Shown: positions 19,010 through 54,053 of the stretch, piece by piece | How positions within the stretch are numbered: the first letter of the stretch is position 1 | Layout: each line of letters starts with the position of its first letter | Position numbers and translations under genes: made by a program | Notes under the pieces: model-generated | What the model saw: only the letters and a program-made list of their open reading frames with translations | What the model was told of the DNA's origin: nothing | Databases searched by the model: none | Source of the DNA: Eledone cirrhosa | Taxonomy: Eukaryota | Length of the DNA stretch: 64,000 bases | Direction of reading: 5' to 3' | NCBI GenBank assembly: GCA_964016885.1 | Contig: OZ024741.1 | Span: 199,268,001-199,332,000 of the forward strand

Positions 19010-19060
19010 TGTACATATATATATGTTTATATATATATGTATATATATGTATATACATAT

Positions 19061-19770
19061 TCAATACATTAACAGAGAAAGCCTTAAGCTATACTCTGAC
19101 TGGCTACCATCTCACTCAACAAACATTAGGATATACCTTAGTATGATCCCAATTTTATGTTTGGAGTGCTAACTATATGTATTTTGCGGAAAGCCAGTTG
19201 TAATATTTTATATGAGATATAATTAAAATTAAAATATATCTCCCTTTCCAAACAATTGTTTCATTATAAGTTTTCTACAAGTTGGGAGAATGTGTCCGGG
19301 TTATGTAGAAGCCTGCACATTTTTCTGTAAGAACATATGCAGGTGGGCACTTATAAATCATCAGTGGAGGCCCGTCAAACATTGATATAAGAAAAAATCT
19401 CTTACCGATGTCAGTTTTCGTGTCAGCAATTGTCCCTTCTCGCATCATAATGACCGCCAAATTTGAAATTCCAGCAGTCTCAGAATGAGGAATTTCACAG
19501 CGTCACGAAGCGGAAAAGGGAGGCAATCGCGAAACACAAGAAAGTAAACTAATTTACACGTGGGTCAATTAATTTTTTCAACAATTTTAACCCTGCGTGT
19601 TAAGAACTCAATTAGATTATTAAAAAATAAATGTATGCATGTATTAATTATACACGCATATAGGTATTTTCTTAGGCTAAAAACATAGATATGATACCAG
19701 AATAACAATCAATATTTCATAATAATAATAAATACGGAAAGTTACGCTTAAATGGTATCTGGAAATATTC
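19061..19770 (-). mobile_element. Non-coding ~700-bp hammerhead-bearing element (retrozyme-like), diverged copy
   Basis: Colinear similarity to 20296-21000 (ctcactcaacaaacattagga...taagaactcaatt); flanked by (TA)n. Confidence 0.7.
19247..19368 (-). ncRNA. Type I hammerhead ribozyme with extended, branched stem II
   Basis: TCCA-CTGATGA-T-TTATAAGT[CCTGCATAT/ATGTGCAGG and TTCTACA/TGTAGAA hairpins]ACTTATAA-T-GAAAC-AATT-GTT^TGGA. Confidence 0.8.
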
Positions 19771-19786
19771 ATATATATCATCATTT

Positions 19787-20118
19787 CATTTTTTCATTTT
19801 ACGTCCACTTTTCCCTGCTCGCAAGGGTGGGACGGGAACTGATCTGGCTTGATTTCTACAGCTGGATGCCCTTCCAAACACCTACCTCATTTACAGTGAG
19901 TGCTGGGCGCTTTTTTACCGTGGCACCTCCACGACCACTCTACAGTGGAATGATAGGAACCCCAGTCCCTATCATCTCATTTCTACAGCTGAGTAAACTG
20001 GAGCAATGTGAAATAAAGTGTCTTGCTCAAGGAAACAACACATCACCCGGTCTGAGAATTGAACTCACAACCTTTCGATTGCAAGGCCAATGCTCTAACC
20101 ACTAAGCCATGTGCTTCC
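19787..20118 (-). mobile_element. tRNA-derived SINE family 2 with RTE-derived tail; other copies at 36596-36922, 36971-37325 and 53659-53999
   Basis: Minus-strand A-box TGGCTTAGTGG and B-box GAGTTCAATTC; 3' part matches RTE 3'UTR; (GAT)n tail; four near-identical copies. Confidence 0.85.
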
Positions 20119-20169
20119 ATATATATATATATATATACATATATATATGTACATATATATGTGTATATA

Positions 20170-20208
<39 letters not shown>

Positions 20209-20295
20209 GTGTATATATATATATATATGTATATATATATGTGTATATATATATGTATATACATATATATATAAATATATATGTGTATATAAATA

Positions 20296-21168
20296 CAATA
20301 TCGGAGAAAGCTTTTTAGCGATACTCCGGCCAAATTCCAACTCACTCAACAAACATTAGGAAATAAGTGATTATATTCCCAATTATGTGTTCGGGGTGCT
20401 AACTAAAAGTATTGCGTGGAAAATTGGCTGTATTATTTCATATGAGATATATCTAATATATATCTTCCCAGACGGACGTCTCGTTTCATTATAGGATTCC
20501 TACAATTTGGGTGAAATTATACCAATTTATGTAGGAGCTTGTATACCATCAATAGATATATAATCAAGTGGGCTCCTATAATTCATCAGTGGGTGCCCCA
20601 ATAATACTAATATTGATAGTCTAACCAACATCAGCATTTAGCGATAATCACTTTCTGTGCCTGAGGTATCTGTCAGGTAGCCAGTCCAGCAGTTCTGAAA
20701 GAAGTGCTCGAACTGATTCAAAAAATGAGGAAGTGAATTACCGCCAAAAAAAAACAATACATGCGCGTGAAAATGAACTCTGAAAGGAATTCAGGCCACG
20801 TGCTAAGAACTCAATTGGAAATTGAAAAAATATCTATGTGTTTACAACATTTGATGACACACACAGATATTTTCTCGGGCAAAATAACAGAATGAGATAT
20901 AAGGAACAATCAATATTCATATATAAAAAATAAACAAAGAAATGCTGACCTTATACCGGGAATTTTTTCAAATCTGCTGCGCCAAGAGTAAGTAAATAAA
21001 TAAAATATCGGAGAAAGCTTTTTAGCGATACTCCGGCCAAATTCCAACTCACTCAACAAACATTAGGAAATAAGTGATTATATTCCCAATTATGTGTTCG
21101 GGGTGCTAACTAAAAGTATTGCGTGGAAAATTGGCTGTATTATTTCAAATGAGACATATCTAACATAT
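20296..21168 (-). mobile_element. Retrozyme-like element: 707-bp monomer plus ~165-bp terminal direct repeat
   Basis: 20301 and 21008 both begin tcggagaaagctttttagcgatactccggcc (offset 707); no ORF; embedded in (TA)n. Confidence 0.8.
20467..20593 (-). ncRNA. Type I hammerhead ribozyme with extended, branched stem II; GUC cleavage site predicted between 20471 and 20470
   Basis: CCCA-CTGATGA-ATTATAGGA[...TCCTACA/TGTAGGA...]TCCTATAAT-GAAACG-AGACGTC-CGTC^TGGG. Confidence 0.85.
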
Positions 21169-21321
21169 CTGTATGTGTATATATATATGTATATACATAT
21201 ATATATATAAATATATGTATATATGTATATACATATATATATAAATATATGTATATATATATATACGTATATATATATATGTATATATATATATGTATGT
21301 GTGTGTGTATATATATATATA

Positions 21322-23995: not shown

Positions 23996-24454
23996 AAAAA
24001 AAAAAAAAATTATAAATTTGAAGACTAAAATCCAAAGAGGGCTCGATAAGGATAAATATATATCAAATATATAAGAACCGTAGAGCAAATTTAATCCGTT
24101 ATTTTAATATATATATATATCATCATCATCATCATTTTACGTCCGCTTTTCCCTGCTTGCAAGATATATGATACTGAAATGAAGTCATCAGAAGCACCAT
24201 TATATCTTTGATCATTTTCTCATTCACTCAATAGTGCAGTTAAGCATTGTTAAGATACCAATCAAATGGAAAGCAGAGTGCACACTAATGTATTGAATAG
24301 TGAGAGAAACAATTTTAAGTGGGTAGAGAATTTGATTCTCTGACTCCGGACTAATGCAATAATTTCTGCTACTCTATCTGCTGGCAACAGTCCATATTAT
24401 CATCATCATCATCATCATCATTATTTTACATCTGCTTTTCCCTGCTGCAAGGGT

Positions 24455-27400
24455 TGCACATATAACTTCAGAGTTGGTACCATAAATGTAGGCACCTTAA
24501 AGGGTCGCGCTAACGAGGTTGTAGAAATGCTTGAACGTAAGGAGGTCGATGTTTGTTGTATTCAAGAGACCAGGTGGAGGGGTGGGTCTGCTAGATTCAT
24601 TGAGGGTAAAAAACAATGTTATAAGCTTTTCTGGGTGGGAAACGACGATGGGCTGGGGGGAGTAGGAATCATGGTAGCAGAAAAGTGGGCAGATAAGATA
24701 ATAGACGTAAATAGAGTGAACGACAGAATAATTAAAATAAGACTTGTCCTCAATAGAACTACGGTGACAGTAATATCTGCGTACGCACCCCAATCCGGAC
24801 TGCCCGGCACTATAAAAGACAGATTCTATGAGACACTGATGCTCACTACCTCCCAAATAACCGACAGTGACTATATAATTATTGCAGGCGACCTAAATGG
24901 TCACGTTGGACAACATTGTGACGGTTACGACGAAATCCATGGAGGCTATGGGTTTGGTACTAGAAATGAGGAAGGCTCTAGAATCCTGGAATTCTGTGAC
25001 GCAAATAACCTAACTATCTGTAACACTAACTTCAAAAAACGTGACAATCACCTGATCACCTATAGATCCGGGGAACACACAAGCCAGGTAGATTATATCC
25101 TTACCAGAAGACGTGACAGAGTGTCTGTTGTAAACACTAAATCCCTCCCCCATGAAGAATGCACCTCCCAACATAGACTGATAATTAGCGACCTCATAGT
25201 CAGGACGAGACGTACTCGACAGCAGAAGAGGACTATCCTCAGGAGAAAAATATGGAAGCTAAAGGACCCCACAGCCAGAAATAAATTTCAAAGCATATTA
25301 CTTGATGCTTTCGACAGTAAGGAAGAGCATTTAGAGTCGGACAATATAGCGGGACAGTGGGAATTTCTGAAAGCAAACCTGCTGATGGCGACAGACGAAG
25401 TCTGTGGCTGGAGCAGGCCTGTTGGCAGGAGGAGAGTAACATGGTGGTGGAACAGTAAGGTGGAGGGGTCAATTAAGGCCAAAAAGCAGGCTTGGAAAGT
25501 ATGGCGGGATGGGGGAAGTAGAGAAGACTATCAAGTGGCCAGGAGGGAAGCTAGGAGACAAGTGTACTTCGCAAGAAGGGAAGCAGAGGAAAGAAAGTTC
25601 AAGCATGTTCTACAACGCGAGGACCAAAAACGTGAGGTGTTCAGGATTGCTAGGCAATGTGTCAAGGAAAACCGTGATATTGTCGGGGAGAAGTGTGTAC
25701 TTAATGATGACGGCGTACTTGCCATCACCGACGCTGATAAGAAGGTAGCTTGGAAGTGTCACTATGAAAGGCTACTAAATGAGGAGAATAAATGGGAGAA
25801 AGACAGTCTCCCCCACATCGACCCAATAGAGGGACCAGCAGTGTTAGTCGAGGGGGAGTATAATAAGTAAGGCAATCAAGGATATGAAGACGGGTAAGGC
25901 GGCTGGGCCTTCGGAAATAGTTGCTGAGATGCTGAAGGCATCTGGCACGGTGGGACACACCATGGTCACCCGGATAGTTAACCAAGTCGTACAGAATGGG
26001 GTTGTTCCGAAGGACTGGCATAGCAGCATCATCGTTAACTGTTATAAGGGTAAAGGAGATGCCCTAGATAGGAGTAACTATAGAGGCATTAAATTAATCG
26101 ACCAGGTCATGAAGGTCACGGAAAAAGTAATAGCGCAACTAATCAGAGAGAGAATTGACCTAGATGAAATGCAGTTCGGGTTTGTGTGAGGCAAAAGTAC
26201 CACAGACGCTCTTTTCATTGTATGTCAACTACAGGAGAAGTACCTAGCTAAAGGTAAACCCCTCTACTTAGCTTTTGTCGACTTGGAGAAAGCCTTCGAC
26301 AGAGTTCCCCGTTCCATTATCTGGTGTGCCCTTAGAAAACTAGGTGTCGACGAATGGCTTGTGAGAGCTATAGAAGCCATGTATAAAGAAACAGTCAGCA
26401 AGGTTAGAATTAACAACGAATATAGTGAAGAGTTTCGCGTAAAAGTTGGCGTCCATCAGGGCTCTGTTCTCAGCCCCCTACTATTTATTATTGCCCTTCA
26501 GGCTATAACAGAGGAGTTCAAGACCGGCTGCCCATGGGAACTCCTATACGCAGACAACCTGACACTCATAGCTGAAGCAATGGCCGAGCTAGAGAAGAAA
26601 TTCCAAACATCGAAGCACGGCCTAGAATCAAAAGGCCTTAAAATTAACCTGGCTAAGACTAAAGTTCTAGTTTGTAGGAAAGAAAATAAGGCGGCGGTCC
26701 CTTCCGGGAAATGGCCATGCTCAGTGTGTAGGAAAGACGTAGGTAGAAACTCCATTTTATGTCCCAAATGCAAAGTATGGGTGCATAAAAGATGTAGTGG
26801 GATCACAGGTAAGCTAACTAAGAACATAGATTTTACATGTGGGCGGTGCTCTGGTGCAATAAGTAGCAGCAAGTGCCCACAAAATACTAGCTCTTACAAC
26901 TGCGCAGAGGGCTCTATAGAAATAGTGGACAGCTTCCGTTACCTGGGTGACGAAATCAGCAGAGTGAAAGTACAGTAGCTAGAGTCAGAACTGGATGGAA
27001 AAAGTTCAGAGAGCTTATACCACTATTAGTCGCTAAAGGGTTCTCCCTAAAAATGAAAGGCAGGTTGTATGATGCCTGCATACGAACAGCAATGTTGCAT
27101 GGCAGTGAGACCTGGGCATTGTGTGCAGAGGATATACGCAGACTAGAGAGGAACGAAGCTTGCATGCTCCGCTGGATGTGTAATAGTAATATACGTGAAC
27201 GGCAAAGCATAAACGAACTAAGGAAAAAATTAGAAATAAGAGAGATCAGATATTGTTTACTCGAGAGAAGGCTACGTTGGTATGGACACATGATGCGCAT
27301 GAAAGTCGATAGCTGTATAACAAAGTGCAGGGCAATAAAGATAGACGGTAGCCACGGAATAGGCAGACCTAGAAAAACCTGGGACGAGCTGATAAACTCC

Positions 27401-36591: not shown

Positions 36592-36917
36592 TATATCATC
36601 ATTTCATTTTACGTCTGCTTTTTCCCTGCTTGGAGTGGGACGGGAACTGATTCTGGCTTGATTTCTCCAGCTGGATGCCCTTCCTAACACCAACCTCATT
36701 TACAGTGAGTGCTGGGTGGTTGTTTGCCGTGGCACCTCCACGACCACTTTGGAGTGGAATGATAGGGACCCCAGTCCCTATCATCTCATTTCTACAGCTG
36801 AGTAAACTGGAGCAATGGGAAATAAAGTGTCTTGCTCAAGGAAACAACACATCACCCGGTCTGAGAATTGAACTCACAACCTTTCAATTGCAAGGCCAAT
36901 GCTCTAACTACTAAACC

Positions 36918-36953
<36 letters not shown>

Positions 36954-37001: not shown

Positions 37002-37324
37002 TTTACGTCCGCTTTTTCCCTGCTTGCAAGGGTGGGACGGGAACTGATTCTGGCTTGATTTCTACATCTGGATGCCCTTCCTAACACCAACCTCATTTAC
37101 AGTGAGTGCTGGGTGCTTTTTTTCCGTGGCACCTCCACGACCACTTTACAGTGGAATGATATGGACCCCAGTCCCTATCATCTCATTTCTACAGCTGAGT
37201 AAACTGGAGCAATGTGAAATAAAGTGTCTTGCTCAAGGAAACAACACATCACCCGGTCTGAGAATTGAACTCACAACCTTTCGATTGCAAGGCCAATGCT
37301 CTAACCACTAAGCCATGTGCCTCC

Positions 37325-38235
<911 letters not shown>

Positions 38236-42573: not shown

Positions 42574-42979
42574 CTGATTGCTAAATATTGGTTAGTAGAC
42601 TGATTGCTAAATATTGGTTAGTAGACTGATAGCTAAGTATTAAGAGACTGATTGCTAAATATTGGTTAGTAGACTGATTGCTCAATATTGGTTAGTAGAG
42701 TGATTGCTCAATATTGGTTAGTAGAGTGATTGCTAAATATTGGTTAGTAGACTGATTGCTCAATATTGGTTAGTAGAGTGATTGCTAAATATTGGTTAGT
42801 AGAGTGATTACTAAATATTGGTTAGTAAACTGATTGCTAAATATTGGTTAATAGACTGATTGCTAAATATTGGTTAGTAGAGTGATTGCTAAATATTGGT
42901 TGATAGACTGATTGCTAAATATTGGTTAGTAGAGTGATTGCTAAACATTGGTTAGTAGACTGATTGCTAAATATTGGTT
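42574..42979. repeat. 26-bp minisatellite (ctgattgctaaatattggttagtaga), about 15 copies
   Basis: Directly visible period of 26. Confidence 0.93.
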
Positions 42980-43499
42980 TGTGCTGATTGATAAAACTGT
43001 ATGCCTTTAGTGTTTTTAGATGGTCAGTGTTAACTTATTTTGGTTATCTATTCTGCTAACAAATGAAGTTAGACATGGATTTTTATATGGAAACTATGAA
43101 ATATTGAAATATGATAAAATATATGGTGACCTTGAATATAGGGCAACAATTTTTCTAATGAAAATATAAAATATTCAAATATGTAATCTTTATAACATTG
43201 CCACTAAAATAAAATGGAAGAATTTGTAGGATTTCATATTTCATGTGACACATCACTCTGACAAATAATTTTTAAGCCTATATAATAAATAACACATAAT
43301 TTCTCATTATATGATGATAATACAGTAAATGATAATTATACAACAACAACAACAACAATAATAATGCTTTCTGATTTAGGCACACGGCCAGCAATTTTCG
43401 GGGAGGGAAAAGTCGATTAAATCGACCCCAATGCATTACTGGTACTTTATTTTATTGACCCCGTAAAGATGAAAGGCAAAACTATCCTCAGTGGGATAA

Positions 43500-51349: not shown

Positions 51350-54053
51350 CATTAGAGGATGATCGTATGTATAATCTACAGATTTCACCTACTAAATTTC
51401 ATGTACAAGTTTTATTTATTTGACCACTTGACATTTTCTGTTTATTCTGATTTGTTTTTCCATATTTTCTCCCTGTACAATCTCCCATTTCATCTTCATT
51501 TCTTGTTCTTGTCTTCTGGCTCTGCATGTGGTAATTTCCATCTGTTATCATTTTCCTATCTGTTCAGGTCTGTTCCATTATCTGTTGTTTCTAATCATGT
51601 ATTAGTCCATAACTGATCTAATCACTTTTGTATCTCTACTAGTTAGTTTTTATTCTGGTCAAGTCACTATCATGTTATCCTTTCAGCTTCTTATTGATTT
51701 GTGCAAGCCATCTCCATCTATTTAACATCATTCTGTCACTGTATATTGTGTTATGACAAGTTTCACTTAGTACTGGACAGTTTGATCCAATTAACTCTTT
51801 CAATACCAATCTGCTTGAAACCCACCTTGGTTCTATGTTAAAACTAATCATATTAAAGTGTTCATATATAAATTTTATCATAATTTTATTACAACTTTGT
51901 CATCTTCTTAACATCAACTATATAAAAAAGTTATTTTACCAAAAGCTTTCGAATTCTAGATTTAATTTCAAGTATTTCTTGAAAGTGTTAAGGTACTATC
52001 TGTTCTCTTATATAATTTACTTTTTCATTTATATTTTCTATCACAACAACCTTAAAAATTAGTTTTAGTCAGGTTATATTTGGTCAGGTTATATTTGTTC
52101 CAGAGGATGATTTTTCAATTGTTTCAAGGGCACAACAACCTCTCTTGTGTTGGCGACACAATAGAATGCACCTAGTGTACTCTGTGTAGTGTGCAACCAT
52201 GAACAATTTGCCAAATAAAGGTTCAAGAAGACTCATCAGAAGTATTAAAGATATGACAACTTCCCTAGTGTTGATGTGACAATAAAAGGCACCAGTGCAC
52301 CATATTGAATGAGGAAATGTATGTGAGTGCTGGCCCTGGCCCGTCTTTGAGGTCAGTAGCTCTAATTAAATATTGACTTTGACTGCGAAGACCCATCCAA
52401 CTCTTGCGTGCAGGGAAAATGAACATCAAAGGATGATGATGATAAACTGTCCTTGACCTTTAACACACCTCATATTTTGCATATGAAGGCTTGTGTCACA
52501 TTGTGTCATGTTGAATATCCTGTTGAAAACTACATTAAGAGTACACATGCCTGCGGAAGGCTCTGTTACTTGCATGTTAATTTTACAAGCAGCTTGTCAC
52601 ATTGACCAGACAACTGGAACAATTGTCAGAAATCACTGAAGTGCATCACATACCTTGGACACATTATATTCTCTCTATATTCTTATCTCTATGCTCTCTA
52701 ATGTGCCCATAAAAGCCCTAATTAGTAAAACATACTCATTTCAAAGATCCCTCTGTACTGATAAGAAATACATAGTAAATAGCATAAGATGTACTGAGGG
52801 ACAGAAAACATGAGTGGAATAGCAACATCACAACTAGTAATTAAGGACAAAATGAAGACATACAGACATACACAAAACCAAACTTACAAAACAAATCAGA
52901 CACACACAGATAGAACAAACAACCAACCAACTAGTGACAAGTAAATAAATACATAAATAAATAAATAAAAACACACACACACCTAGATGTAATGCATGCA
53001 CCAACCAGGCTCACAACACACGAAAACAAGATGGTGTAGGACAGAACAAAGGAGAGACACAAAATAAAAAAAACCTAGTCACTGAGGAGGTCACAGAATA
53101 TGTGATGGAAGAGCTTTGTCAATATATAAACAACCATCCAGTTATCAAACCAAACAACCAACCAGAAATTTATAATAAATTGAAGGGAAAACCAATAGGC
53201 GCATGTGTTTTTATTGACCTTGAAAGGATGAAAGGCAAAATTGACTTTAGCAGGATTTGAACTAGAGAACAGAGAGCTGAAATAAATACTGTAAAGCACT
53301 CTATCCGATGATGTCCTAATGACTGCCAATTCACCTTCTATAAACTAAAGTAAAGACTTCAATCTTTAATCTGATGCAGTCATATCTTGCTAATACAGTT
53401 TCATTTGGTACAAGATGTTAAGAGTTAAATAAAAAGTGTGATTTGATCTTGTGTGAAATAGCTATGGCTATTTTGAAATGGAATATAAGATTGATAGGCA
53501 AAATCTATTTAAACTAATGTGACATACAAAGGAGAAGCAGTATATGAGTTGAGAATGTCGGAGATATGAACGAAAATAAATTTTGGTAAGTAAATGTGAG
53601 TAGAAAAACTTTTTGAAGTTTACATAGTAATATGAATGTATATATATATATATATATATCATCATCATTTCATCATCATTTCATTTTACGTCCGCTTTTT
53701 CCCTGCTTGCAAGGGTGGGACAGGAACTGATTCTGGCTTGATTTCTACAGCAGGATGCCCTTCCTAACACCAACCTCATTTACAGTGAGTGCTGGGTGCT
53801 TTTTTGCCGTGGCACCTCCACGACCACTTTGCAGTGGAATGATAGGGACCCCAGTCCCTATCATCTCATTTCTACAGCTGAGTAAACTGGAGCAATGTGA
53901 AATAAAGTGTCTTGCTCAAGGAAACAACACATCACCCGGTCTGAGAATTGAACTCACAACCTTTCGATTGCAAGGCCAATGCTCTAACCACTAAGCAATG
54001 TATATATATGTGATGGTGATAATAGCCATCCTCATCATCATACATGTGCATGC

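Follow-up and report, generated by a model that had tools for sequence, protein, structure and literature searches.

Insertion ends of a young hammerhead-bearing repeat family in Eledone cirrhosa point to cleaved RNA as a likely template of a Penelope-like reverse transcriptase

The stretch of Eledone cirrhosa DNA analysed here (64,000 nucleotides of contig OZ024741.1, assembly GCA_964016885.1), called the window below, contains an insertion somewhat longer than one repeat unit, beginning close to a position where a hammerhead ribozyme would cut. The question raised by this locus is whether such an end, together with the ends of its relatives elsewhere in the genome, records an RNA cleaved by its own ribozyme, and whether that RNA was linear or circular. 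Units are numbered from the first base past the predicted cut, u1, which is position 20470 and is equivalent to 21177. The insertion, its ribozyme and its target are the following.

20289..21170, minus strand: family A insertion spanning 1.23-1.25 monomers of 707 nt, without a coding frame (repeat comparison, alignment to the family)
20992..21170, minus strand: terminal redundancy, an upstream copy of the segment from the cut to the 3' end, with its 5' edge 7-9 nt inside the cut equivalent 21177
20467..20593, minus strand: type I hammerhead, stem II carrying a long insert, with the cut predicted at 20471|20470 (motif reading, fold, conservation)
20119..20295, no strand: (TA)n target, 3' side, overlapping the last element bases (repeat scan)
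21178..21321, no strand: (TA)n target, 5' side (repeat scan)

The structure proposed in the initial annotation, 1.23 units of a 707-bp monomer, is confirmed by a direct repeat of 177 nt between 20285-20461 and 20992-21168, 97.2% identical and with a period of 707. The minus-strand start, which had been placed at about 21168, near the cut equivalent, is found at u10 (21168), or at u8 (21170) if two bases matching the family majority are counted. The element also crosses the next hammerhead, as had been described with about 170 nt more, and ends 175 nt past the cut, with a further 7-nt AT-rich stretch common to element and flank (u175-182). The view that the redundancy begins at the cut stands in part, as the start does lie 7-9 nt inside it, but the extent of the redundancy depends mainly on the putative priming site, fixed some 180 nt beyond the cut, and not on the 5' end. 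The two redundancy segments differ from each other at 4 positions in 166 nt, two of them family-polymorphic sites. Only one complete ribozyme is present, and therefore this copy could not release a 707-nt monomer. A plus-strand frame resembling an endonuclease tail was dropped as a candidate, the family majority being without an open frame and a tblastn comparison giving no match to two Penelope-like element (PLE) proteins.

Regarding the family, a 39-nt pattern of the 3' junction has 277 exact matches genome-wide, compared to 0 for the control, and these 277 copies are a lower bound. A search of the 3.0-Gb genome returned 2716 candidates, 40 of them scored, with arrays reaching 4.7 units and seamless cut junctions; matches of the 875-nt query, which favours query-shaped copies, are excluded from all end statistics. 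The insertions are dispersed on many chromosomes, with a GC content of 35%, a longest stop-free frame of 50-52 codons in the family majority and a mean divergence from that majority of 2.2% (n=119), and the family is, to judge from its sequences, young. Its 3' end maps to the following position in the window.

20286..20293, minus strand: fixed 3' end of family A, u178-185, the putative internal start of reverse transcription (internally anchored matches)

This end is found at u178-185 in 30/30 internally anchored matches (the first 30 of 183, two from one array) and in 67 of the 85 records of the long-copy set, the other 18 breaking at scattered places, apparently by later insertions or deletions. 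A (TA)n run follows 36/36 of the 3' ends and precedes 96/123 of the 5' ends. Meanwhile, the 5' ends are variably truncated, with 76/99 copies shorter than one unit, 56/99 having at least one whole ribozyme and 7/99 having two. One fixed and one ragged end therefore indicate, by the logic of target-primed reverse transcription, that the ribozyme strand is the RNA and that u178-185 would be the priming site.

Some individual loci show further particularities. At L133 (family A) as well as at L438 (family B), a single (TA)n run contains two copies arranged tail-to-tail, separated by about 30 and 100 nt, as though priming had taken place on both strands of the target. Internal deletions within a unit occur at L077/L313, L386, L071 and L409, some at short direct matches, which suggests skipping of the reverse transcriptase (RT) along the template. 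In addition, (GA)n runs stand at 5' junctions beside the element's own GAGA stretch (L035, L099, L117, L414), possibly due to RT slippage at the RNA end.

A sister family, B, is also represented in the window, along with several repeats of other kinds.

19057..19772, minus strand: family B copy, 738-nt unit, 5'-truncated, about 71% identical to family A (comparison with family A)
19247..19368, minus strand: hammerhead of the family B copy, predicted cut between 19251 and 19250 (motif reading)
5883-6794, 12425-13213 and 24344-25867, no strand: LINE fragments (RT or AP-endonuclease Pfam matches)
19843-20142, 36652-36951, 37049-37348 and 53732-54031, no strand: dispersed repeat of about 300 nt, copies 91-96% alike (repeat scan)
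37325-38232, no strand: 908-bp (TA)n array (repeat scan)
42574-42995, no strand: 26-bp minisatellite (repeat scan)

Family B has a GUU triplet and 3810 search candidates, and its subfamily B' has a GUC triplet and a different palindrome. Both share the layout of family A, with a 3' end that is likewise fixed, some 190 nt beyond the cut (L214-L243, L340-L369, L410-L449). Comparison of the three lineages and folding of the RNA gave three additional features around the cut.

20471..20484, minus strand: short stem III capped by a palindromic loop (-14.9 kcal/mol as self-duplex, -0.7 kcal/mol as hairpin)
20444..20465, minus strand: AT-rich hairpin directly past the cut, u6-27, whose ATATAT is the usual (TA)n joining point of short copies (5'-end mapping)
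20291..20434, minus strand: conserved multibranch fold of the RNA, situated between cut and 3' end (covariation across A, B and B')

The hammerhead is composed of a 4-bp stem I, a CUGAUGA core, a 9-bp stem II with a long insert, GAAA, a 3-bp stem III with the palindromic loop and a GUC triplet. Its constrained fold has -26.5 kcal/mol, compared to -29.5 kcal/mol for the minimum free energy structure, forcing it thus costing 3 kcal/mol. The core columns are almost invariant among about 90-100 family A copies, and an Rfam scan gave 0 matches at gathering scores. A palindromic loop III recurs in A, B, B' and a Hydra-type PLE of the same genome (see below), in four different sequences, with self-duplexes from -6.6 to -14.9 kcal/mol against about 0 as hairpins, and the changes in stem II and the palindrome are compensatory between families. 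A palindromic loop III is expected of dimeric hammerhead cleavage, as described in PMC4209133, and here it is predicted to pair two ribozymes for cleavage in this manner. As for the multibranch domain, both partners have changed in 7/41 base pairs, and pairing is kept in 98% of cells, compared to 35-43% in slid controls, in a sample of 10 related sequences from three lineages. Its closing stem ends at the priming site, and the modelled domain is likely to be an RT-binding element. The body of the unit is structured as well, at u200-381 (z -4.9), with a hairpin at u302-354, and at u380-561 (z -2.0), corresponding to about 20650-20810 and 20825-20877 in the window.

In order to follow where copying ended, first-passage samples were chosen by their 3' end only, comprising the first 100 of the 277 pattern matches and 36 copies from a 105-nt query. 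The pattern sample has 99 copies after de-duplication. Eight of these, of 30-38 nt, lie at the limit of what the pattern detects and were left out of the hazard counts, leaving 91 copies of more than 40 nt; pooled sets include the window copy as one of the two second-passage events there. On the first passage, 15/79 copies of the junction-pattern set stop in the 17-nt cut window (u707-u16), compared to 2.5 expected, and 17/100 compared to 3.0 in the pooled set. This is the strongest stop window, at 8.3 times the local baseline, but others reach 5.7 and 4.1 times, so that the stops are over-dispersed and the P values overstate the case. Within it, 14 of the 17 stops fall at u6-16, the ATATAT patch able to pair with the target, and the majority of all stops in this window are at u8-13 rather than u1. 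Stops at other TA patches amount to 4/96, 0/41, 2/140 and 4/104 passages.

In addition, the first base of 25 copies, preceded by an AT flank, is precisely the cut base u1, 22 of them being 178-185 nt long, two interrupted and one of 887 nt. They belong to six haplotype classes; six of the 25 share private alleles, and part of the peak may therefore stem from one source copy. These six short copies (L159, L168, L169, L171, L178, L182) are possibly a 180-nt SINE-like sub-lineage of one source locus. A hand tally of the first 100 of 215 junction rows gave 30 loci, with 19 at u1 and 11 spread over u696-706. Mapped against the cut, as the initial annotation had suggested, the 5' ends are thus non-random on the first passage, while no significant enrichment is seen for copies longer than one unit, as described below. 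Family B repeats the 5' peak weakly, 6/60 copies stopping in its cut window u738-17 compared to 2.7 expected; its hand tally placed 16/42 loci at u1, with one locus verified, but the control pattern gave 14 chance rows. Further 5'-truncation hotspots of family A are located at u575, u348-364 and u136-148 (about 20603, 20830-20814 and 20335-20323 in the window). The first of these, at the 5' edge of the ribozyme region, collects 5 stops from several haplotypes, more than the exact cut base in the same sample.

The window copy belongs to the class of copies longer than one unit, for which the data were taken from 167 internal-continuity matches, with 30 loci, 40 regions and 16 earlier loci giving 91 records, the window copy being excluded. 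In the same 17-nt window, 5/55 second passages stop compared to 3.0 expected (P 0.18), and in the strict set of one record per array 3/39 compared to 2.2 (P 0.39). All three stops of the strict set fall at u707-u2, where 0.40 are expected in this window narrowed post hoc, and none falls at u6-16, the stop region of the window copy itself (0/39). The ATATAT patch thus ends 14/100 first passages but 0/39 second passages (Fisher P 0.011), so that its sequence alone does not explain the peak, which points to RNAs having their 5' end at the cut. Hammerhead cleavage in vivo is therefore likely to be recorded by the insertion ends of the family. For the window copy itself, we lean towards an ordinary truncation at the AT patch, while a linear multimer cut at the upstream ribozyme and trimmed to TA microhomology keeps a smaller, though considerable, chance of being the origin of its end.

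Regarding the enzyme, it had been proposed that a Penelope-like RT mobilises this element in trans, with (TA)n as the target, and the proposal fits both the fixed internal 3' end and an intact element of the Hydra clade with the same layout. This element has an 813-aa ORF with RWR (RWK-like) and DKT motifs, a CxCx5C linker and CxxC/CxH motifs around conserved E and N, and its assignment to the clade was made by reading these motifs against PMC8557442. A Pfam scan of a 492-aa fragment of the candidate gave no match. It is very young, with 131 scored matches at 99-100% identity, and possesses a palindromic hammerhead with a long stem II and (TA)n at its 3' ends, the latter target being common to family A and this autonomous element. 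Its 3' ends lie 201 nt (9/20) or 59-64 nt (10/20) past the cut, with one unresolved; among at least 11 copies examined for their 5' end, none stops at its own cut. Its tandem units measure 6.1-6.4 kb, much of this non-coding, and end at either of two 3' positions separated by 137 nt (L304, L305, L308, L450-L469); Hydra elements are described as generally under 3 kb by Craig et al. (2021, PMC8557442).

The monomer shares no sequence similarity with the Hydra-type element beyond low-complexity matches. The likeness is thus one of layout, by which alone the partner is assigned, and the RT is likely to be of the Hydra clade, not necessarily of this Hydra family. A profile search with the cut-to-primer domain found A/B-type copies only, among the loci examined. 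Another young PLE family, with open frames of about 1210 codons, 4.1-kb perfect tandems and a short hammerhead (L306, L307, L309, L274-L303), is presumably Neptune-like; it was judged the poorer partner, having a short stem II and no similarity to the monomer. When the monomer was compared with the pLTR of two young PLE families, no sequence similarity was found; fragments resembling further PLEs were encountered besides these two.

Taken together, the window copy is probably one insertion of a young non-coding family, whose RNA would be copied in trans by a Penelope-like RT, likely of the Hydra clade, from a start some 180 nt beyond a hammerhead for which cutting in vivo is predicted. The enzyme would nick a (TA)n run and bind the folded domain past the cut, then prime internally at the 3' edge of this domain and copy towards the 5' end of the RNA. 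Where the RNA had been cut at the nearest ribozyme, the RT would run off after about 180 nt, producing the short class, about one in seven of the copies reaching the first cut site. Most RNAs would be continuous across the site, as an uncut multimer or a re-ligated circle, and copying would then stop at scattered places up to 4.7 units in; the window copy would have crossed one cut site and ended at the next. By analogy with related elements, a circular intermediate for family A may or may not exist, the chances being evenly balanced.

A stronger version makes a 707-nt circle, formed by double cleavage and ligation, the main template, with arrays as laps of one circle, and we place it slightly short of an even chance. 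Arrays of up to 4.7 units with seamless cut junctions are consistent with it, as is the sharing of subfamily alleles by passages within an array, where 44/723 differ compared to 268 expected for random members (78 arrays); a homogeneous linear multimer predicts equal sharing, however, and these comparisons did not separate circle from multimer. Furthermore, in 32 of these 44 cases one common family allele is exchanged for the other, twice in the window copy, hinting at mixed templates, though hypermutable sites or gene conversion could do likewise. The 7/99 copies with two whole ribozymes could supply monomers, and since truncation shortens arrays in every round, some length-restoring step would be needed; circles have been demonstrated for coral, mussel and axolotl retrozymes, as reported in PMC7229834. 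Nevertheless, a closed circle has no 5' end and does not predict stops at the cut, which therefore point to linear cleaved RNA, and a circle would not by itself leave an end such as that of the window copy. Between 500 and 700 nt the stop rate has already reached about 0.003 per nt, and no step at 707 nt, as strand displacement on a circle would produce, was seen in the long copies. Contigs from 2 of 4 listed sequencing runs of unspecified kind showed that the sequence is present in them; as such contigs do not reveal RNA ends, they were given no weight here. Both the cut stops and the seamless read-through would also follow if the RT ran off a linear monomer at its cut 5' end and jumped to a cut 3' end, either its own or that of a different monomer, building seamless arrays without a ligated circle. 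End-to-end template jumping is a property of non-LTR RTs, and 21/32 of the allele swaps fall in the terminal 180-nt segment. Jumps between randomly drawn family RNAs are excluded for most arrays by the same 44 vs. 268 differences, and no junction scars were noticed in the aligned arrays, without this being a systematic count, so jumping seems an unlikely main route.

The ribozyme might instead be a passive inherited motif, the peak at the cut being due to TA microhomology and the u6-27 hairpin and amplified by a few short source copies. The 14/17 stops at u6-16, the presence of other hotspots and the short sub-lineage among the exact starts speak for this, as does the insertion of ribozyme mutants in vitro reported in PMC11167929. 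Such an origin does not account for exact starts on TGGG with at most 1 nt of target homology in six haplotype classes, for the 0/39 second-passage stops at the AT patch, for the longer TA patches elsewhere that are not hot, or for the compensatory changes in stem II and palindrome between families, and is considered quite improbable. Local duplication at the DNA level, as in a satellite with random ends, finds a trace in the array L018, whose two units are only 0.4% apart compared to 3-4% for most other pairs, so that some local duplication or conversion does occur; as an account of the family it is contradicted by the polar ends, one fixed and one ragged, of dispersed (TA)n insertions on many chromosomes, and is very improbable. 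Returning to the preferred reading, in which cleaved and continuous RNAs are both copied from the internal priming site, a tentative and rather doubtful extension can be drawn: one RNA would give rise both to a 180-nt SINE, from cut to primer, and to tandems copied off a 707-nt circle closed by ligation, with a Hydra-clade RT priming the two products on the conserved folded domain, the junctions being a fossil record of germ-line hammerhead cutting. If true, no earlier retrozyme would have had both its priming site defined and its partner enzyme named, the latter still being intact here.

What PLE hammerheads do in vivo is described as unclear in PMC8557442 and PMC7761336, and a circular template for PLE copies of more than one unit was proposed in 2014 (PMC4209133). 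In the literature searched, which included few subscription papers, no paper was found that relates the 5' junctions of retrozymes or PLEs to the position of the hammerhead cut; the family, or relatives of it, may figure in the supplements of PMC8557442 or of Li, Clavereau and Pollet (2026, bioRxiv 10.64898/2026.07.22.740005). Family A offers a test set for the movement of animal retrozymes: its cut base is predicted, its priming site fixed and its RNA domain covarying, and a candidate enzyme is present, intact, in copies that are nearly identical.

In all features tested, family A is, at the level of its DNA, a non-LTR retrozyme or non-autonomous PLE. The animal non-LTR retrozymes described by Cervera and de la Peña (2020, PMC7229834) and in bioRxiv 10.64898/2026.07.22.740005 are likewise non-coding head-to-tail repeats of low GC with one type I hammerhead per unit, and their mobilisation by Penelope-like elements, possibly via circles, is proposed in both. 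The 707-nt unit of family A is longer than the 170-400 nt given in the former and within the 51-972 bp given in the latter; most of its copies are shorter than one unit (76/99), unlike the retrozymes described in these reports, and it is known from genome sequence, whereas circles were shown in PMC7229834. Partial tandems, 5' truncation, a hammerhead in the repeat and (TA)n targets are also reported for Hydra-clade PLEs (PMC8557442), from which family A differs in lacking an ORF and any detectable similarity to the single Hydra family used for comparison. R2 and L1Tc, with 5' HDV-like ribozymes (PMC6765202, PMC7761336), involve another class of ribozyme and RT, and most family A copies, unlike these, run through the site into tandem units. 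The Poseidon element PAc of Anolis (Frangieh et al. 2024, PMC11167929) resembles family A in that RT starts inside the RNA downstream of the hammerhead, as shown there in vitro, in AT-rich DNA, with genomic 3' ends marking the start. In that study, cleavage was dispensable for insertion in vitro and the RNA-seq reads reported included none ending at the cut, while the genomic 5' ends of family A pile up at it. Thus, dozens of sampled insertion ends point to cut RNA serving as a template, where the only in vitro study found cleavage dispensable.
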